The position numbers and the translations under genes were made by a program. From positions 1 through 35,424 of IMG/VR virus record IMGVR_UViG_3300014039_000010: 35,424 nt of DNA; one strand, 5' to 3'. The notes below the pieces were generated by a model. The model saw only the letters and a program-made list of their open reading frames with translations, searched no databases and was not told where the DNA came from. How positions within the stretch are numbered: the stretch's first letter is position 1; each line of letters starts with the position of its first letter. This document shows positions 602 through 24,502 of the stretch, one piece after another. Source of the DNA: a virus.

Positions 602-625
602 AGAGGGCGCAATGCCCTCTTTTTT
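602..625. terminator. Bidirectional rho-independent terminator between the convergent holin and integrase genes
   Basis: Stem AGAGGGC (602-608) pairs with GCCCTCT (614-620), with a T-run after it and an A-run before it. Confidence 0.7.
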
Positions 626-1964
626 ATTTGAAGTGTATCGTTATGTCATTGCGGTTATTACCTACTTCGATATAGTCAATTATTGACTGCCACAAGTACC
701 TTTTTTCTGTGTCCTTTAGTGTGTGATATATACTTTCAAAGTCCATCGCTAGAACCGAATCTATACTATCCAAGTCGATGCTACTATCTTGCGTTTGGGC
801 TTCGAGTTCTGCTATCATGTCGTTCAAACGCACGTATTCGGCTTTGTAGGCACTTTTGTCTATCAAGTCGTCCAGATATAGGTCTTTTAGTTTTTCGAGC
901 TTATTTCGGCATTTTACGAGCTTACAAGCTATATCTTGCTTGTCTGTCTGCTTCTGCTTGACTTCGTACTCGACCTTGTATCGTTCGAGTTCGGGCTTGA
1001 TGTGCGCAAGCAGATATTTTTCTAATATGCCTGCTTCCGGGAGCGCATAGGTGTTTGTACATACTTTTTCTTTTACGGCTTTTTCGCATCTGTATAGCTT
1101 GTAATATCTGCCGCTTCTCATCCTTGCATTGCCACGAAGTGATCTGCCGCAGTATTTGCAACGTAACAACCCACTGAATATATAATCTATACCCGTGTTG
1201 TATTCGCGCTTGTTCATGCTTAAAAGCCTTTGTACGTTATTAAATTGTTCCGTGCTTATAATTGCAGGGCAATAGTCTTTTATGCCCTTAAATTCGCCTA
1301 TATAACGTTCGCATGATAGCCTACGCCTTATAAGTCCATAATTTACATATTCGTATTTTTCAGTTATATATTTCTTTGTTTTTGACACATTGTTGCATCG
1401 TTCGTAGTAATCAAACATGTCCTTTATTTCTGCCGCCGCTTTTTCGTCAATTACAAGCTTTTTATCCTTTATTATGTAGCCATGCGGAGCGGATGCGTTA
1501 CATACTTCGCCATTTTCTTTTTTGTGCTTAAATACGGCTTTGATACGTTCGCTTGTACGGTCGCATTCGTCTTGATTGACTGATAGCATGATGTTTATAT
1601 GCAGTCTGCCAGAGGCGGTGCTTGTGTCGTAGTCCTCTAATACTGTTTTCCAGTTACAATTATGTGCTTCGAGTATATCTTGCACGGCATAGTAATCTTT
1701 TATATTTCTGAACCATCTGTCTAATTTTGTCACAAGTATTAAGTCTATTTTGTCGTTTTGAACGTCTTTTAATAGCCTTTGCAAGTCTTTTCTGTTTGAT
1801 AGTTTTTTTCTTGCCGTGATCCCTTCGTCGGCATATGTATCTATAATCGTGTATCCTTTTGCTTTGGCATACTCTTTTAGAGTTGCTTCCTGTGCTTCTA
1901 GTGACAAGCCATGCAGAACCTGTTCGTCATGGCTCACACGGATATACAACGCCGCCCTAATCAT
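624..1964 (-). CDS. int: Large serine recombinase (phage integrase)
   Basis: 446 aa. N-terminal resolvase motif AALYIRVSHDEQ...GLSLEAQ, then a recombinase domain, a Cys-rich zinc ribbon (CKYCGRSL...YRCEK) and a C-terminal coiled coil. Confidence 0.95.
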   Translation of the reverse strand: MIRAALYIRVSHDEQVLHGLSLEAQEATLKEYAKAKGYTIIDTYADEGITARKKLSNRKDLQRLLKDVQNDKIDLILVTKLDRWFRNIKDYYAVQDILEAHNCNWKTVLEDYDTSTASGRLHINIMLSVNQDECDRTSERIKAVFKHKKENGEVCNASAPHGYIIKDKKLVIDEKAAAEIKDMFDYYERCNNVSKTKKYITEKYEYVNYGLIRRRLSCERYIGEFKGIKDYCPAIISTEQFNNVQRLLSMNKREYNTGIDYIFSGLLRCKYCGRSLRGNARMRSGRYYKLYRCEKAVKEKVCTNTYALPEAGILEKYLLAHIKPELERYKVEYEVKQKQTDKQDIACKLVKCRNKLEKLKDLYLDDLIDKSAYKAEYVRLNDMIAELEAQTQDSSIDLDSIDSVLAMDFESIYHTLKDTEKRYLWQSIIDYIEVGNNRNDITIHFK

Positions 1965-2427
1965 TGTTTTCTGCCTTCTTTATGCGGTCGTATTGCTCAA
2001 TTTCGCTTGATGTAAGGGCGTAGCTGCTATGTATGTATTCTAATAGGTCTAATATCAAATCCTTTTCTATCTTCTTTATATCAAGGTCTTTTATTGTTTG
2101 TGCGATTTCGTCAAATGTCTCATAAATATGTACTTTTGCCTTAATGCGTTTTATCATAAATACCTTTTCCGCGTCCGACATTTTACTTCTTGTCTTTACA
2201 AGTTTTAGGTCTATCCCTGTGTTATTATCCGCCTGCATCAATTCGCTTGTAGGCACGTCTAGCCACTCGCTTATACGTTGTACCTTGTCAATCGGAGGCT
2301 GGATGTTTCCTTTTTCATAATCTGCATATGTAGTACGTGCTATCCCTATACGTTGTGCCGCTTCAAATTGTGTTAAGCCTTGTCTTTTTCTGTGTTCTTT
2401 CAGTAGTTCATAATTAAATAAATTCAT
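1957..2427 (-). CDS. CI-like XRE-family HTH repressor
   Basis: 156 aa. N-terminal HTH_3 (RKRQGLTQFEAAQRIGIARTTYADYEKGNIQPP). Divergent from the early genes and overlaps int by 8 nt, so probably one operon. Confidence 0.85.
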   Translation of the reverse strand: MNLFNYELLKEHRKRQGLTQFEAAQRIGIARTTYADYEKGNIQPPIDKVQRISEWLDVPTSELMQADNNTGIDLKLVKTRSKMSDAEKVFMIKRIKAKVHIYETFDEIAQTIKDLDIKKIEKDLILDLLEYIHSSYALTSSEIEQYDRIKKAENND

Positions 2428-3133: not shown

Positions 3134-3288
3134 TGGATGAAATGTATATCGTTAAAGCTTTAAATTTGGATATATATATGCTTATTGACGAAGAATCGTG
3201 CAACGTGCTATGCACAGGCACATATCAAGAATGTGAGGACATGAAAGAGAGATTGATAAGTGCACAGGAAGCAAGCATAAGAGGGTAG
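3133..3288 (+). CDS. Hypothetical small early protein (about 51 aa)
   Basis: GTG 3133 (or ATG 3142) follows the RBS GGGGGTG. It is tightly packed with its neighbours. Confidence 0.4.
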   Translation: MDEMYIVKALNLDIYMLIDEESCNVLCTGTYQECEDMKERLISAQEASIRG

Positions 3289-3296
3289 GTGATTGT

Positions 3297-3473
3297 ATGG
3301 GATATATTATCGTAGGAGATAAGGACGGTGTCAGCGGCTACGTTATAGATTGCGGATTTTATACGCGTGAAGATGCAGAGCGCAGACTGGGACAGATTAT
3401 GGAGTGCCGGTCGTTACCGGATGAGATAATCAATATTGAGTATGACGATATCCGCATAGAAAGAGAGGATTGA
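3297..3473 (+). CDS. Hypothetical small early protein (58 aa), paralog of 3478..3687
   Basis: MGYIIVGDKDG..CGFYTREDAERRLGQIM aligns by eye with MEYVIVGDSEK..CGFKERERAERVLNRML of the next ORF. Confidence 0.55.
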   Translation: MGYIIVGDKDGVSGYVIDCGFYTREDAERRLGQIMECRSLPDEIINIEYDDIRIERED

Positions 3474-3477
3474 TAAG

Positions 3478-3687
3478 ATGGAATATGTTATCGTTGGCGA
3501 TTCAGAGAAGTACAAAGAATGCCTTTTATGCTGTGGATTTAAAGAAAGGGAACGGGCGGAGCGAGTGCTTAATCGGATGCTTAACAATCCGACGCGGGAT
3601 GACGAGCAGATCATGCATGGCATGAGCAATATTCGTGTGCAGGAAGTGGCAAGCGCGGATTGCTGGTGGAATGATAAGTACGATTAG
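3478..3687 (+). CDS. Hypothetical small early protein (69 aa), paralog of 3297..3473
   Basis: Track ORF with the shared N-terminal motif described for 3297..3473. Confidence 0.6.
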   Translation: MEYVIVGDSEKYKECLLCCGFKERERAERVLNRMLNNPTRDDEQIMHGMSNIRVQEVASADCWWNDKYD

Positions 3688-3701
3688 AAGGGAGTTTGCA
3701 T

Positions 3702-3908
3702 ATGGGTTTATCTGCACCATGCAAGGATTGTGGTAACCGGGTTGTTGGTTGTCATTCTACTTGCGACAAATACAGAATGTTTGCGGAAGAGCGTAAAGAG
3801 TATGTGCGAAAAGTAAAAGCTTGCAGGCGTAAAGATAGAGAGTACATGGAAGCAAGGCAGGCAAGTATCTATAAGTCGTTACGGAATGCCGGAAAGAAAG
3901 TGACGTAA
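3702..3908 (+). CDS. Small Cys-rich basic protein (CxxC...CxxxC)
   Basis: ATG 3702 lies 7 nt after the RBS GAAGGGAG. The sequence CKDCGNRVVGCHSTCDKY suggests a zinc-binding knuckle. Confidence 0.55.
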   Translation: MGLSAPCKDCGNRVVGCHSTCDKYRMFAEERKEYVRKVKACRRKDREYMEARQASIYKSLRNAGKKVT

Positions 3909-9462: not shown

Positions 9463-9730
9463 GTAAGTCAAAATGTAAGACATTAGAAACCTAGTATTTA
9501 TGCGGCTTTAGAGTATATATTTATATAATGTCTTACATTTTTACATGACTTACATATATTATATATATTTTATAGAAAAAATTCTTAAAGCTTATCTTTT
9601 AAGCTAATATAAAATATTTTTTATATATGTGCAGAAAAAATGTAAGAATGTAAGACCATTAGTATTTATGCGGGTTTACGAGGATTTTTATGTAAGACAA
9701 AATGTAAAAGTCTTACATAGAATGTAAGAA
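9463..9730. repeat. Putative replication origin: about 10 copies of the 8-9-mer ATGTAAG(A/T)C in both orientations around an AT-rich core
   Basis: Forward copies at about 9473, 9640, 9648, 9690 and 9722. Inverted copies at about 9530, 9547 and 9710. TAGTATTTATGCGG at 9492-9505 and 9660-9673. The AT-rich stretch is 9556-9635. There is no ORF. Confidence 0.6.
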
Positions 9731-17707: not shown

Positions 17708-19165
17708 ATGTTTGAACGAACAAAGAACGCGCTTAAAAATGCAGTTCGTAGCTTTTTGAGCTTGTCGGAATCGACAGGGATAAGCGCACAGATCAACGAG
17801 CTTTTCGACTTCGAGACGAACGCATTCGTCAATGAGATTTGGTTCCGCGGCGATGGCTACGAGCTGGAACAGTTGTATAAGTCAATCCCGGACTACAAGT
17901 ATTCGTTCTGGGGAGCGGCAAGCACAAAAGGCTTGGAGATACGCAAAATCCACACAGGACTACCGAAAATCATTGTAAACACTTTGACGAATGTATGCGT
18001 TGACGACATGCAGGATATTAAGATTGAGCATATCGGAAAAGAAAACACGTGGGGAGAGATTGAGAAGGAGAACGACTTCAAAGCACTTGTTAAAAAAGCA
18101 GTGCGTAAGGCACTTGTAACGGGCGACGGAGCATTCAAGATCAGCATTGATACGGACGTGTCGCAGTATCCGATTCTAGAGTTCTATGAAGCAGACAGAA
18201 TCGAGGTTGTAAAGAAGCGTGGAAGAGTAAGCGAGATCCGCTTCAAAAAGCATTATGCAAAACAGGGCGTATCTTATGTGTTGAAAGAGTGCTACGGATA
18301 CGGATATATCACGTACAGACTTTTCGATGCTTACGACAACGAGCTTTCACTTGACAAGCTGGATAGTACAAAAGACTTGCAGCCTGTTTACTTCGACAAG
18401 TCCTTTATGATGGCGGAATATTTGTCATTCTTTGCATCGGACAAGTGGGATGGACGAGGACAGAGCATCTATGATAGCAAGCGCGACAACTTCGATTCTT
18501 TAGACGAGGCGTGGTCGCAGTGGGTGGATGCACTTAGAGCGAACCGCACAAAGTCATACATCCCAGAAGATTTGCTTCCAAGGGATCCGGCGACAGGACA
18601 GCTTCGATATGGCAATGCATTTGATAACCGATTCATCGCAACAGGTACACCGATGCAAGAGGGCGCACAGAGTAAGATTGAGACAGTAAACGGAGCAATC
18701 GACACAAACAGCTACTTGTCAACGTACGTCACAGCACTTGACTTATGCTTGCAGGGCTTAATATCTCCGTCAACACTTGGCATTGATGTAAAGAAGCTGG
18801 ATAACGCAGAGGCGCAGAGAGAAAAAGAAAAGACTACGCTATACACACGCCAGACTATCATCTATGCATTACAGGATTGCTTGCAGTCGCTTATCGACAA
18901 AGTATTCAAAGTATATGCGCTGATGAGTGGCGAGGCTTTGGATGTGACGGAAGCAGAAGTAAGTTTCGGCGAATATGCAAATCCGTCGTTTGAAAGTCAA
19001 ATTGAGACAGTCGGCAAAGCAAAGACACAGGGTGTTATGTCGATTGAATCAATCGTGGAAGAGCTTTACGGCGATAGTAAGACAGATGACTGGAAGGCAG
19101 AGGAAATACGCCGCATTAAGAACGAACAGGGCATTGCAGAGCTGGAAGAGCCGAGCATGATATAG
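17708..19165 (+). CDS. Portal protein (SPP1 gp6-like)
   Basis: 485 aa, sitting after terL and before MuF. Its size and acidic C terminus fit this family. Confidence 0.8.
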   Translation: MFERTKNALKNAVRSFLSLSESTGISAQINELFDFETNAFVNEIWFRGDGYELEQLYKSIPDYKYSFWGAASTKGLEIRKIHTGLPKIIVNTLTNVCVDDMQDIKIEHIGKENTWGEIEKENDFKALVKKAVRKALVTGDGAFKISIDTDVSQYPILEFYEADRIEVVKKRGRVSEIRFKKHYAKQGVSYVLKECYGYGYITYRLFDAYDNELSLDKLDSTKDLQPVYFDKSFMMAEYLSFFASDKWDGRGQSIYDSKRDNFDSLDEAWSQWVDALRANRTKSYIPEDLLPRDPATGQLRYGNAFDNRFIATGTPMQEGAQSKIETVNGAIDTNSYLSTYVTALDLCLQGLISPSTLGIDVKKLDNAEAQREKEKTTLYTRQTIIYALQDCLQSLIDKVFKVYALMSGEALDVTEAEVSFGEYANPSFESQIETVGKAKTQGVMSIESIVEELYGDSKTDDWKAEEIRRIKNEQGIAELEEPSMI

Positions 19166-19177
19166 AAGGGAGCAAGC

Positions 19178-19360
19178 ATGGAGCAGAAAGTAATTAAGGG
19201 ATTGACTATTGAATTTAACGGAGAGACTATCGACAACGTAACAAATCTTTGCATTGATACGTGGGATAAGAAGTACGTGCATTTCACGTACAAAAGAAAT
19301 GAGGGTGTATCCGTAAATATTGCTTGCGACTTAAAGGATATCAAGATAAATATTGCTTAG
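19178..19360 (+). CDS. Hypothetical small protein (60 aa) between portal and MuF
   Basis: Track ORF with the RBS GAAGGGAG upstream. Confidence 0.5.
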   Translation: MEQKVIKGLTIEFNGETIDNVTNLCIDTWDKKYVHFTYKRNEGVSVNIACDLKDIKINIA

Positions 19361-19381
19361 AAAAAAGTGAGGAATAAAACT

Positions 19382-19588
19382 ATGATTAAGAATTTCATCG
19401 ACGATATGATACCGGAGTTTGGGTATGATTATGTGATCGGACATTGCCTTTGCAGTGAGTACGACTTGCGTAACAAGGCAAATCGTGAAGAGGACGAGGG
19501 CAAGAAGCGCAGATACTTAAAAACGGCGCAGATGTACAAGAAGAAAGCCGAAGCATTGACAAGGGAGAGGATTGACAATGGCTTATGA
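19382..19588 (+). CDS. Hypothetical small protein (68 aa)
   Basis: ATG 19382 lies 8 nt after GAGGA. The track GTG start at 19367 is within the RBS. Confidence 0.5.
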   Translation: MIKNFIDDMIPEFGYDYVIGHCLCSEYDLRNKANREEDEGKKRRYLKTAQMYKKKAEALTRERIDNGL

Positions 19589-21611
19589 TATCACGGAAGC
19601 TTTCGAGGATATCGAGCTTGCGCTAATTAAATCTATGCGTGCGAATATGCAAAGGCATATCGACGACGAGTACGACGAGGGCATGAACTGGACGCAGTGG
19701 CAGGCAGAGATGCTTGCCGGGTTATCGCAGTATCGAGCCGAGAATCAAGACGTGCTTAAAGGGTACATGGGCAAAATGAACAGCGAGCTTGCCGGGGCAA
19801 TCCGTGATGCATATGCCACAGGAGAAAGTGAGCTTGAAATCGAGCTTTTGAAGCAGATACAAAAGGGATATACGCCGCCTAAAGACGGAAAGAAGGTTAA
19901 TATGCAAGGTGCTTTTTTTCGTAACAATCAGAGAAAGCTCAATGCGCTTGTCAAGGCTACGACAAGCGATATGAAAAAGGCGGAAACAGCACTTTTGCGT
20001 ATGAATGACGACATATATAGGCAGACTATATTTAAGGCGCAGATGTTCTATAATACCGGTGCAGGCAGTATGTGGCAATGCGTAGATATGGCAACGAAGG
20101 ACTTCCTTGCAGCAGGGTATAATTGCGTACAGTACAAGAACGGCGCAAGGGTGAATATCGCAAGTTATAGCGAAATGGCGTTAAGGACTGCAAACAAGCG
20201 TGCAAATTTGATGGGACAGGCAAACTTCCGCGAGAAACACGGTATGCATCTTGTCAAAGTCAATGCACGTGGTACGGCGTGTCCCTTGTGTCTGCCGTAT
20301 CTTGGGAAAGTGTATGTTGACGATGTGTACGGCGGCGGCACTGCTGAGGAAAGCAAGTCAAGCGGATATCCGTTGCTTAGTATTGCAGTAAAGGGCGGGC
20401 TTTTTCATCCAAACTGTAAAGACGCTTGCAGTACGTACTACGAGGGCATCAATCAACCGCCCAAAGAGGTCACGGACGAACAGGCAAAAGAGATCAACCG
20501 CCGATACAATCTGGAGCAAACGCAAAGATACTACGAGCGCAATTACAGAAAGAATGTCAGACTTGCTAATGGCAGCTTGACAGAGGAAAACGTCAAGAAG
20601 TATTCAGCACGTGCAAGCGCATACAAAAAGAAGTTGACTGATCTGTGTGATGCAAACAGTGACGTGCTTCGACTTGACAAGCAGAGGCTTTCGCTACATG
20701 GCGTTTTAAGCGTTGATAATAAGGGTAGGCTTAGTGTTACACCTAAAGCGAATAAAAATGCAACCACGGGCATTATACGCGATTACAACGGTACATTAGC
20801 AACGAAGCTGGGTAAAGATCACTATGATAATATATGCGACAAGGTAGATAAGTGCAAGGACAAGGATCTTGTTGCGTTGTGGCAAGCGCACGCAGATCAT
20901 ATCGGAGTTGGAAGCACTACAAAAAAAGGTGCATATGCTATGAGTGGTAGTATATACTTAGATATTGAGAGGGTAGCAAAAGGCGGCATGATTGAAAAGC
21001 CATATCAGACAGCATTCCATGAGTGCGGACACGTCATTGACGGAAGAGCGAGAAGAAATCTGCAAACGCAAGGAGTTTTTGCAAGCCATTTTTCTGGCGC
21101 ATATAAAGACGGACTATTCCCGCAAACGATCAAAGACGAAGTGCAAGAGTGGGTTATGCGTTATGACAAGGAGTTGAAACAAGCGTTCAAAGATCATGCA
21201 GGCGATGTTGAATGGTTCAGACAGAACGGACATATAGGCGAATGGAGTTACGACAGGTATAAAAACGGATATGCGACGGCAAGCGAAGTAATACCAAAGT
21301 ATCGTAAATCTATGGCATATAATGCAGTCGCAAAAGAATTGAGAAGCTATGATGCAATAGCGGTTGCTGATTTGTGCGATATCGTAGAGGGTGCAACAAA
21401 CGCAAAGATAAGCGTAGTTGCAGGACACGGCGCGAAGTACTGGAAAGATAGGACTGTCGGCGGCATTGCAGATGGACTTGCAACAGAGGCATTTGCGGAG
21501 ATCACGGACAGTACGTTTGCGAATGAAGAAAGTCTGGACTTAATTAAAAAGTATCTGCCTAAGAGCTACGATGTTTACAAGGAAATGGTAAGGGAGATGT
21601 TAAAGCAATGA
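19578..21611 (+). CDS. Head-morphogenesis protein (MuF / SPP1 gp7 family) fused to a C-terminal HEXXH metallopeptidase-like domain
   Basis: ATG 19578 follows the RBS AAGGGAGAGG. The MuF core includes ...TACPLCLPYLGKVY...GGLFHPNCKD. After a coiled linker comes a roughly 280-aa C-terminal domain carrying FHECGH (nt 21018-21032). Confidence 0.8.
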   Translation: MAYDITEAFEDIELALIKSMRANMQRHIDDEYDEGMNWTQWQAEMLAGLSQYRAENQDVLKGYMGKMNSELAGAIRDAYATGESELEIELLKQIQKGYTPPKDGKKVNMQGAFFRNNQRKLNALVKATTSDMKKAETALLRMNDDIYRQTIFKAQMFYNTGAGSMWQCVDMATKDFLAAGYNCVQYKNGARVNIASYSEMALRTANKRANLMGQANFREKHGMHLVKVNARGTACPLCLPYLGKVYVDDVYGGGTAEESKSSGYPLLSIAVKGGLFHPNCKDACSTYYEGINQPPKEVTDEQAKEINRRYNLEQTQRYYERNYRKNVRLANGSLTEENVKKYSARASAYKKKLTDLCDANSDVLRLDKQRLSLHGVLSVDNKGRLSVTPKANKNATTGIIRDYNGTLATKLGKDHYDNICDKVDKCKDKDLVALWQAHADHIGVGSTTKKGAYAMSGSIYLDIERVAKGGMIEKPYQTAFHECGHVIDGRARRNLQTQGVFASHFSGAYKDGLFPQTIKDEVQEWVMRYDKELKQAFKDHAGDVEWFRQNGHIGEWSYDRYKNGYATASEVIPKYRKSMAYNAVAKELRSYDAIAVADLCDIVEGATNAKISVVAGHGAKYWKDRTVGGIADGLATEAFAEITDSTFANEESLDLIKKYLPKSYDVYKEMVREMLKQ

Positions 21612-21763
21612 ATGAACTATTAAAAAAGTATGAGGATGCATTTAATGAGTGTTTCCCGCTTATGCTTATGAGAGGCATGAGCGAAGAGGACGTAAAGGTT
21701 GCTATTGAAAAATGCTTGAAAAATGGCAAGCCTTATGAGGTAGATGCAGAAGGTGATTATTAA
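21608..21763 (+). CDS. Small protein (51 aa) translationally coupled to the MuF fusion; candidate cognate immunity or inhibitor protein
   Basis: ATGA start/stop overlap at 21608-21611. Below the track cutoff. A strong terminator follows. Confidence 0.45.
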   Translation: MNELLKKYEDAFNECFPLMLMRGMSEEDVKVAIEKCLKNGKPYEVDAEGDY

Positions 21764-21767
21764 GCAC

Positions 21768-21871
21768 AAAAAAGAGCAGGCGGGAGGTATCGCTTGCTCT
21801 TTTTCGTAAGAGGAGAATTAAATCATGTCACTTCTAATCACTTACAAGAAGGGAAAGGTTAATAAGAAGAT
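21768..21871 (-). ncRNA. Candidate minus-strand small RNA of about 100 nt
   Basis: Minus-strand -35 TTGACA (reverse complement of 21901-21906), exact 17-nt spacer, -10 TAAAAT (reverse complement of 21878-21883). The transcript would end at the bidirectional terminator. It holds no meaningful ORF. Confidence 0.3.
21773..21804. terminator. Bidirectional rho-independent terminator
   Basis: 10-bp stem, AGAGCAGGCG 21773-21782 with CGCTTGCTCT 21791-21800 (one G-U pair). A-run upstream and T-run downstream. Confidence 0.75.
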
Positions 21872-21937
21872 ACTTTTATTTTACATCTTTGTTAAAAAAA
21901 TGTCAATGTGGCTTACGTGATTACATCGAAAAAGTCC

Positions 21938-22212
21938 ATGTAAACCAAAATGTAAGTCAAAGAAACGTAGTATTTATGCGGTGTTCATACATTTGTCTTG
22001 CAATCTTCCATAATTTTTTCAATTACAAAAAAATATTAGTAAATATATAAAAAATAAAAGAGCTGATATAAAAATCGCTATATGAATATATAAATATAAA
22101 AATTATGTATTTATGTATATATATGTAATAAAAAGGCTTATAAACCCTTATAAATACTACATTCTTGGTGTCTTACATTTTGACTTACATTTGACTTACG
22201 TTTTACATTTTC
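21938..22212. repeat. Second iteron and AT-rich region, related to the 9463-9730 origin
   Basis: A direct copy of the origin unit lies at 21938-21981 and an inverted copy at 22145-22188, flanking an AT-rich core of about 160 bp. Further GACTTAC(A/G)T iterons lie at 22181-22210. Confidence 0.6.
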
Positions 22213-22217
22213 CAGTA

Positions 22218-22245
22218 TTGATTTTTGAAAAATGTATGTTATAAT
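22218..22245 (+). promoter_or_regulatory. Sigma-70-type promoter with an extended -10, for the tandem-HTH gene
   Basis: -35 TTGATT 22218-22223, 16-nt spacer, TGT-TATAAT 22237-22245. Confidence 0.6.
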
Positions 22246-22275
22246 GAGCAAAAACATACAAAACGGAGGATTAAC

Positions 22276-22740
22276 ATGAAGATTAGTTCTGAAAAATTAA
22301 AGTATCACAGAAGAAAGACAGGAAAGACGTCACAGGAGTTTGCGGACTTGTGTGGCATTCCAGTTGGTACATATTTTGCATATGAATCCGGCTGGCGAAG
22401 TCCGAGAAGCGAGCGGATACAGATTATTGCAGACAAATTAGGCGTACTAAAAGAAGATATCACAGAGAGCGACACAGATTACAGGATGATGCAGATAAAT
22501 AAGGGGTGTTTATCAAGCGATGATATCCTAAAAGAGCGAGTTGAGATTGACACAAATCTTTTGAAAGTGAAAAGGCAACAGTATTTTGGGAATGCAACCG
22601 TGTTTGCAAAGTATCTGGGTGTCAGCGTTGCGACATATTACGGCTACGAGAAAGGAAAAGTCAAACCGACAAGGCTTGTCATCAGAAAAATGTGCAATGC
22701 GCTTGATTTGCAGTTTATGAGGCTTGTAAAGACAGTATAA
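22276..22740 (+). CDS. Tandem-HTH (two XRE-type HTH_3 domains) DNA-binding protein
   Basis: ATG 22276 follows the RBS ACGGAGGA. HTH1 is RRKTGKTSQEFADLCGIPVGTYFAYESGWRSP. HTH2 is RQQYFGNATVFAKYLGVSVATYYGYEKGKVKP. The track TTG start at 22225 lies inside the promoter. Confidence 0.75.
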   Translation: MKISSEKLKYHRRKTGKTSQEFADLCGIPVGTYFAYESGWRSPRSERIQIIADKLGVLKEDITESDTDYRMMQINKGCLSSDDILKERVEIDTNLLKVKRQQYFGNATVFAKYLGVSVATYYGYEKGKVKPTRLVIRKMCNALDLQFMRLVKTV

Positions 22741-22746
22741 TCATAA

Positions 22747-22775
22747 TTGACATGACGGTATAAACATAATATAAT
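22747..22775 (+). promoter_or_regulatory. Consensus promoter (TTGACA-17-TATAAT) for the scaffold and capsid operon, with the late box in its spacer
   Basis: -35 at 22747-22752 and -10 at 22770-22775. GACGGTataAACATA at 22754-22768 occupies the same position as the early operators. Confidence 0.6.
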
Positions 22776-22820
22776 GACATTAAGAACGTCGACGGGACGA
22801 TAAAACGGGAGGTCATTTAT

Positions 22821-23438
22821 ATGGCAGATATAAATAATACTGCTACACAGCAGGACAACGGCACGCAGGCACAGGGCGGTAACAGTGCAAATAACACACA
22901 GACACAGACACAGACAGCTGGAGTTGATTATGACAAGATACAGGCTATGATCGACAAAGGTACTACGCAGAAAGAAAACGCAATCCTTAAATCGTACTTT
23001 GAACAGCAGGGTATGAGCGAGGATGATGTTAAATCTGCAATCGGTGATTGGAAATCACGTAAGCAGACACAGGCACAGGAGCAGACAGACAACTTTAATA
23101 AGTTGCAGGAAAGCAACAAGGCTTTGCAGGAACGACTTACACAGGAGCTTCTTAATAAGCAGGCGTTCAACGATTGCTTGGACTTAGGAATTGACAAGAA
23201 CACAATCCCGCACGTGATTAAGTGCGCAGACTTCACAGATGCGATCAACGAAAAGGGAGAGGTCAATGCAGAGAAGGTAAGAGCAAGCGTAGAGCAGGTA
23301 CTTAAAGATGTACCGGCTTTCAAGAGTTCCGCAAGCGAGAAGCAGGGCTTTAAGGTTGGAATCAGCGGAGAGCAGGACGACGCAACCGAACAGGAAAACG
23401 TCTTGCGTAAGGCTTTCGGTCTTGCACCTAAAAAGTAG
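22821..23438 (+). CDS. Scaffolding protein
   Basis: 205 aa with a Q/T-rich N terminus and a coiled-coil body. Directly upstream of the major capsid gene. Confidence 0.75.
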   Translation: MADINNTATQQDNGTQAQGGNSANNTQTQTQTAGVDYDKIQAMIDKGTTQKENAILKSYFEQQGMSEDDVKSAIGDWKSRKQTQAQEQTDNFNKLQESNKALQERLTQELLNKQAFNDCLDLGIDKNTIPHVIKCADFTDAINEKGEVNAEKVRASVEQVLKDVPAFKSSASEKQGFKVGISGEQDDATEQENVLRKAFGLAPKK

Positions 23439-23452
23439 AAAGGAGTAACAAA

Positions 23453-24502
23453 ATGGGCAATAACATTGCATTAGCGAAGGTTTACACAAATCTTCTGGAT
23501 GAAGTTTATCAGCAGTCGGCATTGACTGCAAATCTGGAATCAGATGCGACACTTGCAAGAGCAGGTGCAAATGCAAACGAGATCGTCATTCCTAAGCTGT
23601 CAATGGACGGACTTGCAGACTACAACCGTAACAGCGGCTATGTAGACGGCGACGTTGAGTTGACATGGGAGACAGCTAAGTTCAACTATGAAAGAGGTAG
23701 ATCCTTCACAGTTGACGACATGGATAACGAAGAGACACAGAACATTGCGTTCGGTCGTCTTGCGGGCGAGTTTATCCGTACAAAGGTTGTTCCAGAGCTT
23801 GACGCATTCAGATTCGCTATATATGCGGGTACAAAGGATGCAGGCACAGCAACAGGTACACTGTCAGATGGCGCAGGCGTAATCGCAGCACTTAGAGCTG
23901 CTACATCTGCTATGGACGAGGCAGAAGTACCGATGGAAGATCGTCATCTCTACATCACACCGACACTGTACGGACTTGTACAGGATCTTGACACTACTAA
24001 GTCAAGAGAGGTACTGGGAAGATTCGCTTCTATTACACAGGTGCCGCAGACAAGATTCTACTCTGCTATTGACTTGCAGGATGGCAAGACAGAAGGCGAA
24101 GAGAAGGGCGGATTTAAGAAAGCAGATCACAAGCAGGAGTACACAGTTTCTTCTGCACAGACAGATTTTATCGTAACTGCAAAGCCTGCATCTGTACAGA
24201 AGGTTACACATAATGGCGAATCCGTGGACTTTTCATACGATGCAACTAGCGGCAAGGTTACGATTGCCTCTGTATCTTCTGGCAAGGTTGTAGTTATCTA
24301 CGACACAGGTGTTGAGCTTAACTTTGAGATCATTCACAAGCCAGCAGTATTGCAGTTCACAAAGCACGCAGTACCGAAGATCATCGCACCGGAGCAGAAC
24401 CAGAACGCCGATGCTTGGAAGTACGGATATCGTAACTACGGTCTTTGCGATACTTACGAGAACAAGGCGGCAGGTATCTACGTACATAAGAAGGCACTGT
24501 AA
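23453..24502 (+). CDS. Major capsid protein
   Basis: 349 aa. Position after the scaffold gene and an SPP1 gp13-like N terminus (IALAKVYTNLLDEVYQQSALT). Confidence 0.85.
   Translation: MGNNIALAKVYTNLLDEVYQQSALTANLESDATLARAGANANEIVIPKLSMDGLADYNRNSGYVDGDVELTWETAKFNYERGRSFTVDDMDNEETQNIAFGRLAGEFIRTKVVPELDAFRFAIYAGTKDAGTATGTLSDGAGVIAALRAATSAMDEAEVPMEDRHLYITPTLYGLVQDLDTTKSREVLGRFASITQVPQTRFYSAIDLQDGKTEGEEKGGFKKADHKQEYTVSSAQTDFIVTAKPASVQKVTHNGESVDFSYDATSGKVTIASVSSGKVVVIYDTGVELNFEIIHKPAVLQFTKHAVPKIIAPEQNQNADAWKYGYRNYGLCDTYENKAAGIYVHKKAL

Follow-up and report, generated by a model that had tools for sequence, protein, structure and literature searches.

A MuF2 head protein of a temperate phage carries an exchangeable zincin-like domain paired with a small acidic partner

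The window (the whole 35,424-nucleotide stretch of viral DNA that was analysed) encodes a MuF head protein whose C-terminal domain is a swappable cassette, as comparison with closely related phages supports. This domain is zincin-like and is followed directly by the gene for a 51-residue acidic protein. We favour, with some reserve, a reading in which the products form a virion-associated MuF2 protein with an exchangeable zinc-protease effector and an inhibitory partner, the effector being ejected into the host. The features concerned are the following.

17708–19165, + strand: portal protein gene (phrog_533 portal protein, E = 4.8e-84)
19178–19360 and 19367–19588: two small ORFs between the portal and MuF genes
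19572/19578–21611, + strand: MuF gene ORF, 677 aa counted from the ATG at 19578
19578–20762, + strand: N-terminal MuF2 (Phage_min_cap2) head-morphogenesis module, aa 1–395, from the PF06152 match and homologs
20700–20762, + strand: junction motif GVLSVDNKGRLSVTPKANKNA, aa 375–395, left recombination boundary, from homolog comparison and blastn end points
20763–21611, + strand: variable C-terminal zincin-like metallopeptidase domain, aa 396–677 plus the stop codon, from the AF2 model
21018–21041, + strand: HECGHVID, comprising H481, E482 and H485 (predicted zinc ligands and catalytic base) and D488, invariant (n = 77)
21378–21500, + strand: second conserved block (D601, EGAT, G616-H617, Y621-W, LATE637AFAE641), from conservation
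21608–21763, + strand: acidic partner of 51 aa, a candidate inhibitor or immunity protein, ATGA-coupled, phrog_29127
21766–21807, + strand: intrinsic terminator closing the cassette, hairpin of -22.6 kcal/mol (z = -5.7)

Residues 8–358 of the MuF protein match Pfam PF06152 (Phage_min_cap2) with an E-value of 6.7e-40 and a score of 137.6 bits (cut-off 26.3); this, and not PF04233 (Phage_Mu_F), is the Pfam family to which the N-terminus belongs. PF06152 is the 'MuF2' branch within the MuF superfamily (PMC5576092), so the 'MuF' label given in a sequence-only reading of this DNA is right at the superfamily level. In PHROGs, proteins of this sort are named no more precisely than 'minor head protein' or 'head morphogenesis'. 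The MuF gene is preceded by the terminase gene and followed by the scaffold and major head genes. The same reading had named MuF proteins of temperate Firmicutes phages as known toxin carriers, and the window contains genes for a large serine recombinase (serine integrase; 624–1964, minus strand) and for an HTH_3 CI-like repressor (1957–2427, minus strand). Relatives sit in bacterial genome contigs.

The exchange of C-terminal domains was seen by comparing phages with closely similar N-termini. The N-terminal module matched 3,079 homologs at E <= 1e-20, and the comparison was made with 63 of the best 120 of these (71–95% identity), namely those with a parseable C-terminal extension. The zincin-like domain is absent from all 63. 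A papain-like domain is found instead in 54 of them, and the rest carry either PF15644 Gln_amidase or three other HEXXH domains (zincins); the close N-terminal homologs listed show at least five C-terminal types other than the zincin-like one. PF15644 Gln_amidase is a recognised toxin domain. At the DNA level, similarity to the syntenic phages L133, L134 and L135 breaks at nt 20731–20761 (blastn end points) and returns at the scaffold gene, and phages that share the cassette remain similar up to 21745–21774. The left boundary is marked by the junction motif, seen against homologs P0299, P0303, P0315, P0321 and P0379, after which the homologs diverge. Different C-terminal domains come with a different downstream ORF or with none: the alternative cassettes are followed by a 71-aa DUF7675 protein in L133 and a 66-aa ORF in L135, and the sister zincin cassette of L134 has no small ORF downstream.

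A confident AF2 model was obtained for the C-terminal 282 residues (mean pLDDT 93, pTM 0.90), comprising a three-strand sheet, a helix bearing the HEXXH motif, a long helical insert and a helix bearing a glutamate. Strands 55–57, 65–67 and 70–72 (numbering of the 289-aa model, pLDDT 93) come before helix 89–107, which corresponds to protein residues 477–495 and carries H481-E482-C-G-H485. The 677-aa ORF is therefore a MuF protein fused to an HEXXH domain, as had been proposed, with HECGH at residues 481–485 (nt 21018–21032). The sequence-only reading had assigned these same nucleotides to FHECGH; the motif stands, but the stated range should begin three bases earlier, the Phe codon being 21015–21017. 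The motif is also not decorative. Among 77 diverse relatives, representatives taken from different 50%-identity clusters, H481, E482, H485 and E637 are invariant, as are D488, D601, H617 and Y621. E637 would be the third zinc ligand; it lies on model helix 244–260 and, together with E641, falls opposite the EFFAE block of PPEP-1 only in a negatively scoring alignment stretch. Y621 is a candidate for a residue like Tyr728 of anthrax lethal factor (LF). A conserved Tyr stands 16 residues before the Glu in the zincin-like domain, and the corresponding spacing in LF and PPEP-1 is 7 residues. Judged jointly with the effector-cassette explanation as a whole, it seems reasonably probable that the domain is an enzymatically active zinc metallopeptidase of the HEXXH...E (gluzincin) type.

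The domain defines a family of 1,897 clusters at 50% identity. The C-terminal domain of the window protein has no Pfam match at E <= 10, Peptidase M34 (ATLF) included, and no NCBIfam match; PF18818 MPTase-PolyVal does not match the window protein, and PADLOC returned nothing for either the MuF protein or the 51-aa ORF. Searches of 50,697 phage records gave no match either with the domain (tblastn) or with 9 kb around the MuF gene (megablast). Sub-threshold Pfam matches are found among the 77 family members, to Peptidase_M90 (5/77), ATLF (1/77; E 1.9e-4, whole protein), M91 and MPTase-PolyVal (PF18818; 1/77, E 0.0023). The best PDB relatives by profile and fold are anthrax LF and PPEP-1, all of them weak, with an E-value of 1.1 in the profile search and E >= 1.1 and TM 0.35–0.5 in Foldseek, which are not significant on their own; a full-length profile of the 77 sequences gave no improvement over the domain-only profile. 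Foldseek had been suggested as a way to identify the peptidase family, and it yielded a weak affinity to LF and PPEP-1 but no significant family match. Taken as a whole, the family shows weak affinity to anthrax lethal factor, PPEP-1 and MtfA. The N-termini of the 77 sampled members are MuF1, MuF2 or phage-type only, with no RHS, LXG or other secretion-linked N-terminus among them. Some family members add another effector domain, such as an ADP-ribosyltransferase or a 2H phosphoesterase. The size and conservation of the family would fit a housekeeping virion role as well.

The gene for the partner protein starts within the end of the MuF gene, its ATG (21608–21610) overlapping the MuF stop codon TGA (21609–21611). 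This ATGA overlap and the strong terminator behind the small ORF had both been picked out from the sequence and were confirmed; none of 200 shuffles folded as well as the hairpin at 21766–21807. Given the translational coupling, synthesis of the partner should keep pace with that of the protease. The partner (pI 4.5) is predicted by AF2 to form three short helices with a floppy tail, and a Foldseek search of the model against the PDB returned nothing meaningful. It belongs to phrog_29127, which PHROGs lists as of unknown function, and has at least 160 homologous clusters, with a C-terminal Tyr in 111 of 120 homologs. Between the partner and its L001 ortholog pN is 0.22 and pS 0.74. No promoter of its own was detected for the gene, which lies within the late operon; protection of a lysogen by the partner would thus not be easy, and the protein resembles an in-cis inhibitor for the producer cell more than a superinfection immunity protein for lysogens.

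The partner ORF tracks the zincin-like domain, not the head module. Absence of the small ORF beside homologous domains had been named in advance as a result that would count against the toxin–immunity layout; by HMM, 87 of 110 loci have a partner homolog directly 3' of the domain, at offsets of -106 to +24 nt from the domain stop, and among a further 16 loci inspected, 14 carry a small 66–90-aa ORF with the same Y..F...G.P pattern. In the reverse direction, look-ups from three small-ORF clusters found MuF plus the domain upstream every time. The pairing is independent of the N-terminus, which may be PF04233 (MuF1), PF06152 (MuF2) or non-MuF, and the domain and partner co-diverge (r = 0.66, reached in 0 of 2,000 permutations). 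The 51-aa ORF is a real family.

Swapping, invariant residues, gene pairing and a temperate phage are what the layout of a polymorphic toxin and its immunity gene, proposed in the sequence-only reading, leads one to expect. Because every testable comparative prediction held, we regard that layout as supported. From it we infer proteolysis, toxicity, inhibition by the partner, packaging, ejection and a target along the following lines. The last 282 residues of the MuF2 head protein and the next gene would constitute one exchangeable effector cassette. The partner would bind the protease domain and silence it in the producing cell, possibly with its C-terminal tail laid in the active-site cleft, while the MuF module would take the fusion inside the capsid, at the portal. 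When the phage next infects a cell, the fusion would exit together with the DNA, and the protease, then free of inhibitor, would cut one or a few specific host proteins. By analogy, the window protein may be packaged and ejected like SPP1 gp7 and 80alpha gp44, short MuF pilot proteins which share its superfamily and genome position and provide the experimental basis for packaging at the portal and ejection with DNA. The 80alpha protein is an ejected pilot protein (PMC12323379). Unlike the window protein, neither has a C-terminal enzymatic domain.

Several observations could also be accommodated by a different role for the zincin, as a processing peptidase (for maturation or release) that cuts MuF or other head proteins at assembly or after ejection, the small protein then being its regulator or assembly chaperone. 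Autoproteolytic roles are proposed by Iyer et al. (PMC5512222) for the MPTase domains of virion-packaged polyvalent proteins, and the extra effector beside the domain in some relatives would give such a peptidase something to release; the large and conserved family, confined to head-module proteins in the 77 members sampled, points the same way. The window protein, however, has no second effector domain to release. Near-identical phages fill the slot with a Gln_amidase or papain-like domain, and the lineage therefore needs no such protease for assembly; the idea that the lineage depends on a head maturation protease of this kind was rejected on account of these sister phages, which do without the domain. 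Furthermore, the junction motif is kept whatever domain comes next, a pattern more in keeping with a recombination site than with a protease-specific cleavage site. We consider a processing peptidase unlikely.

It is the role of the small protein, and not of the zincin, that is at issue if the partner assists folding or packaging as a chaperone, activates the protease as a cofactor (like Mlc for MtfA) or is delivered along with it as a substrate. Pairing and co-divergence indicate a partnership but not its sign, the conserved Tyr at the end of a disordered tail might just as well serve in docking or as a substrate, and no promoter was detected for lysogenic expression. On the other hand, the small downstream partner neutralises the toxin in each experimentally studied MuF toxin system that the cited papers describe (PMC12226406, PMC5576092), as is general in polymorphic toxin systems, and translational coupling gives the stoichiometry expected for an inhibitor; a partner of the non-inhibitory kind is accordingly rather improbable. 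We give very little credence to a conserved structural extension with a non-catalytic HEXXH and an unrelated head gene behind it, although no curated peptidase family reaches threshold and the PHROGs names speak only of head proteins. The metal ligands and the catalytic Glu do not vary between relatives from different 50%-identity clusters, the closest N-terminal homologs listed have unrelated domains in place of the zincin, and the small ORF accompanies the domain and not the head module. A non-catalytic HEXXH was rejected in view of the invariant residues in the 77 relatives.

The effector cassette that we favour has precedents. MuF polymorphic toxins of temperate phages are an established concept (Jamet et al. 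2017, PMC5576092), and the window system resembles them in its N-terminal MuF-superfamily domain, its position shortly after the portal gene, its variable and predicted enzymatic C-terminal domain with a small ORF (<150 aa) directly downstream, and its occurrence in a temperate phage of gut Firmicutes. Examples include the MuF2-nuclease of SF370.1 (Jamet et al. 2017, PMC5576092) and MuF-Apk2 of S. pneumoniae, whose immunity protein IapK occludes the toxin active site (PMC12226406). Metallopeptidases make up 20% of 191 reported MuF toxins, and about 75% of MuF toxin domains are common to other polymorphic-toxin families (PMC5576092). In contrast to most polymorphic toxin domains, the present zincin was not seen on non-phage toxin scaffolds (77 sampled members), and its partner, almost always with Tyr as the last residue, is unusually small (~50 aa). 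The definition of Ct_MAD rests on C-terminal extensions matching the C-terminal region of COG2369, and this domain was reported in phages of Proteobacteria (PMC5576092), and is thus probably unrelated to the window domain.

Likenesses to known peptidases are partial. The MPTase domains of polyvalent proteins (Iyer et al. 2017, PMC5512222) likewise have HEXXH with a downstream Glu and are virion-associated, and in one MPTase-PolyVal clade HEXXH is followed at three residues by an Asp, a feature shared with the window domain (HECGHVID); the His that this clade conserves where strand 2 ends is only partly conserved in the present family, and an obligate small partner, such as the window domain has, is not mentioned in the extracts consulted. 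The best profile and fold matches, all non-significant, are anthrax LF with PPEP-1 and PPEP-3 (MEROPS M34) and MtfA (M90), which are highly specific endopeptidases. The alignment to these enzymes is colinear over HExxHxxD and sets the EAFAE block of the domain family against EFFAE of PPEP-1, in a stretch that scored negatively. Unlike the M34 and M90 peptidases, the window domain has a helical insert of ~135 residues between the two active-site helices.

A more speculative version, which we hold to be possible but doubtful, is that the pair is an injected, highly specific anti-host protease restrained by a novel type of mini-inhibitor, as opposed to a growth-inhibiting toxin with its antidote. 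The protease might then cleave, for example, the repressor of a prophage already in the cell, or else a protein that the newly infected host uses for defence or regulation. As for the inhibitor, its free C-terminal tyrosine would block the zinc site by imitating a cleavage product, and the protein would be removed from the protease during packaging or ejection. If true, this would be a new protease–inhibitor pair of ~1,900 clusters, spread over phages of Firmicutes, Actinobacteria, Saccharibacteria and Spirochaetes.

Gut phages are rich in MuF toxins. For these systems our analysis defines one large zincin family that is unnamed in curated libraries, together with its obligate partner of ~50 residues (phrog_29127), maps the swap junction exactly and names the key residues: E482, H481, H485, E637, Y621 and the terminal Tyr of the partner. 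It also provides an annotation rule, in that a MuF module, a zincin-like domain and a mini-ORF are to be treated as a single cassette. Current views are not overturned; the known polymorphic-toxin layout gains a putative effector family and a partner family.

The N-terminus of the 677-aa MuF protein matches PF06152 (Phage_min_cap2; residues 8–358, E 6.7e-40), the MuF2 branch of the MuF superfamily in Jamet et al. (PMC5576092), instead of PF04233. With HECGH at residues 481–485 (nt 21018–21032) of the same ORF, this confirms the fusion of a MuF protein to an HEXXH domain proposed in the sequence-only reading, and the 51-aa ORF described there, overlapping the MuF stop through ATGA (start 21608) and followed by a strong terminator (−22.6 kcal/mol), is likewise found. 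The gene order is terminase, portal (phrog_533), two tiny ORFs, MuF gene, small ORF, variable island, scaffold and major head protein, so that MuF does not directly follow the portal gene. The relevant features of the window are:

624–2427, large serine recombinase and CI-like HTH gene
19178–19360 and 19367–19588, small ORFs of 60 and 73 aa between portal and MuF
19578–21611, + strand, MuF-zincin fusion ORF, 677 aa (ATG 19578, stop 21609–21611)
21608–21763, + strand, small ORF, 51 aa, its ATG within the ATGA shared with the MuF stop
21766–21807, hairpin, −22.6 kcal/mol, z = −5.7
22225–22740, 171-aa protein with two HTH_3 domains, in a second variable island
22747–22775, perfect TTGACA-17-TATAAT promoter, directly before the scaffold gene
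23453–24502, major head gene, 349 aa

The phage is temperate, judging by its recombinase and CI-like HTH gene. No close relatives were found among 50,697 deposited phage records, and from relatives only we infer a host among Clostridia, Lachnospiraceae, Oscillospiraceae and others. Relatives likewise have called genes, comparable in length, between portal and MuF (61 and 73 aa in L133, 70 in L134, 69 in L135, 71 in L001). In L001, a close relative (ena:ERZ27280514:k141_1104205), a free-standing HNH/NUMOD homing-endonuclease gene (3202–3747) interrupts the MuF gene, leaving an N-terminal ORF of 277 aa and a C-terminal ORF of 348 aa, at a point corresponding to window ~20372–20409; the zincin domain and 51-aa ORF downstream are undamaged.

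Residues 389–677 gave no Pfam or NCBIfam match, permissive thresholds included, and the domain falls outside all curated families. An AlphaFold2 model built with 30 homologs as alignment (mean pLDDT 93, pTM 0.90) places N-terminal helices, three short strands, the HEXXH helix, a ~135-residue helical insert and a helix with LATEAFAE in the order expected, as modelled, for a zincin. When 1.84 billion representatives were searched with a profile of the domain, 1,897 proteins scored E<=0.001 and 1,030 of them E<=1e-10; the domain is C-terminal in the 150 best matches, within proteins mostly of 590–700 aa, and H481, E482, H485, D488, D601, H617, Y621 and E637 are invariant across 77 representatives. 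Solved structures resemble the domain only weakly: the best PDB profile match is C. difficile Zmp1/PPEP-1 (E 1.1), where the scoring stretch covers HExxHxxD; HMMER paired the family EAFAE with PPEP-1 EFFAE in colinear order, at a negative score; and Foldseek ranks anthrax lethal factor and PPEP-1/PPEP-3 first (TM 0.35–0.5, no E below 1.1). Sub-threshold Pfam matches in a few family members are to Peptidase_M90 (5 members), ATLF, M91 and MPTase-PolyVal. We therefore call the domain a putative gluzincin-type metallopeptidase, with an unproven nearest affinity to the LF/PPEP/MtfA group.

The same fold occurs in a viral structure library in 'minor capsid proteins' of uncultured siphoviruses (16–18% identity, E 3e-10, TM 0.72). 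Divergent copies lie in Candidatus Saccharibacteria (CPR) contigs (799-aa proteins in L028, L029, L109 and L110, 583 aa in L031) and in a Spirochaetia contig (L027), and the family therefore ranges well past Firmicute phages. P0021, a homolog of 396 aa on a 3,278-nt ENA contig, begins with part of a family-B DNA polymerase (PF03175) and continues with the C-terminal half of the zincin domain, a fusion probably due to chimeric assembly or faulty gene calling.

The small ORF is a real gene: pN is 0.22 and pS 0.74 against the L001 ortholog, at least 160 clusters of 47–89 aa match its profile, and 4 of 7 diverse members match the unannotated phrog_29127. Its product is acidic (pI 4.5), with Y8, F12 and P17 invariant and Tyr as the last residue in 111/120 homologs. 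The AlphaFold2 model has three short helices and, from about residue 40, a low-confidence tail; no structural relative of the model was found.

Seven contexts reached through domain homologs, with N-termini including PF06152, PF04233 and non-MuF, have a small-family member directly downstream in six; in the seventh (L004) it forms the C-terminal half of a downstream 106-aa ORF. Conversely, the gene upstream of three small-ORF clusters (12 places) encodes a long MuF protein every time, and all five scored carry the domain (E 1e-102 to 1e-112). A survey of 112 loci from genome and viral collections, 110 with a complete domain ORF, showed that the small ORF is kept beside homologous domains: its HMM matches in 87/110, in each case within −106 to +24 nt of the domain stop, and 14 of 16 examined loci lacking a match (Collinsella, Bifidobacterium, Saccharibacteria and others) have in the same place an ORF of 66–90 aa that shares the Y..F ... 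G.P pattern. Loci with similar domains tend to have similar partners (correlation of pairwise identities r = 0.66, reached by 0/2,000 permutations), a tendency to which linkage alone would contribute. At L006 (6386–7168) a stand-alone domain with N-terminus 'KPTTVGGIPTG...GNPSHNPDGTFG', in which no Pfam match was found anywhere, precedes the small partner. Three genes downstream of this domain is an ART-PolyVal gene, an arrangement that suggests a group of virion effectors, each with its own gene.

A search with the 380-aa N-terminus found 3,079 homologs at E<=1e-20, and identity is 71–95% in the best 120. A junction-motif parse recovered the C-terminal extension in 63 of these 120 (31 others end near the junction and 26 have no parsing motif), and the window zincin is in none of the 63: 54 carry a Cys/His papain-like domain, three PF15644 Gln_amidase ('papain fold toxin 1') and six other HEXXH domains of three kinds. 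The three other HEXXH C-termini on the same MuF2 N-terminus read HEFTH...DEFIAEAF, HEVTH or HEMGH, with no Pfam match (L134 3892–5883 and proteins P0315, P0377, P0379 and P0344). Homologs are colinear to ...GRLSVTPKANKNA (A395) and unrelated beyond. Compared with syntenic phages whose C-termini differ (L133, L134, L135), DNA similarity stops at nt 20731–20761 and returns, in L133 and L134, at 22781–22827, shortly before the scaffold gene (the L135 contig ends soon after its cassette), while with phages sharing the cassette (L001, L054, L055) it persists through 21745–21774. The downstream ORF varies with the domain, being a 71-aa DUF7675 protein in L133 and a 66-aa ORF in L135; no small ORF was found after the L134 HEXXH cassette. 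These break and resumption points, with the changing downstream ORF, identify the C-terminal domain plus small ORF as the unit of exchange.

The second variable island (21808–22780), between the cassette terminator and the scaffold gene, differs in relatives, with for example a 94-aa HTH protein in L134. The 9-mer TGTAAGWCW occurs 9 times (1.0 expected), 8 copies being grouped in two AT-rich intergenic regions (9474–9717 and 21951–22189); a longer box, AAAATGTAAGxC...GTAGTATTTATGCGG, is common to both and to the matching regions of relatives, and as a group the copies resemble regulator binding sites. At 349 aa, the major head protein is longer than in syntenic relatives (289–290 aa), and DNA similarity in its gene is broken for about 180 nt (~24127–24307). 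Since 346 of its residues span a PHROG profile of 297 positions, a candidate insertion domain of about 55 aa is implied.

SPP1 gp7 is a portal-binding head protein. The 80alpha MuF protein gp44 is described as a DNA-end-binding pilot protein that is ejected (PMC12323379), and the MuF toxin Apk2, toxic in experiment, is neutralised when the product of a downstream gene blocks its active site (PMC12226406). By analogy with these precedents, the MuF-zincin fusion would be packaged, the 51-aa protein, co-made through translational coupling, would hold the protease inactive in the producing cell, and the protease would act once ejected into the next host. A purely hypothetical mode of inhibition, suggested by conservation of the terminal Tyr and flexibility of the tail that bears it, is insertion of the tail into the cleft. 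In-cis silencing is the likely role of the small ORF; protection of a lysogen against incoming phage is not supported, because no good-quality promoter-like site was found upstream of the ORF within the MuF gene.

The small partner could instead be a chaperone or activator, and the zincin is possibly a processing peptidase, as Iyer et al. (PMC5512222) suggest for polyvalent-protein MPTases and as fits some relatives that join the domain with ART or 2H domains, although sister phages do without it. A purely structural, non-catalytic extension is contradicted by the invariant residues and the swapping of the domain.

Jamet et al. (PMC5576092) describe MuF toxins, with metallopeptidases making up 20% of 191 and small downstream ORFs found in 89%, and Iyer et al. 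describe virion MPTases, one clade of which has an Asp at the third position past HEXXH. To these the present analysis adds a specific, very large zincin family unnamed in curated libraries, its obligate mini-partner, the exact swap junction and a set of testable residues.
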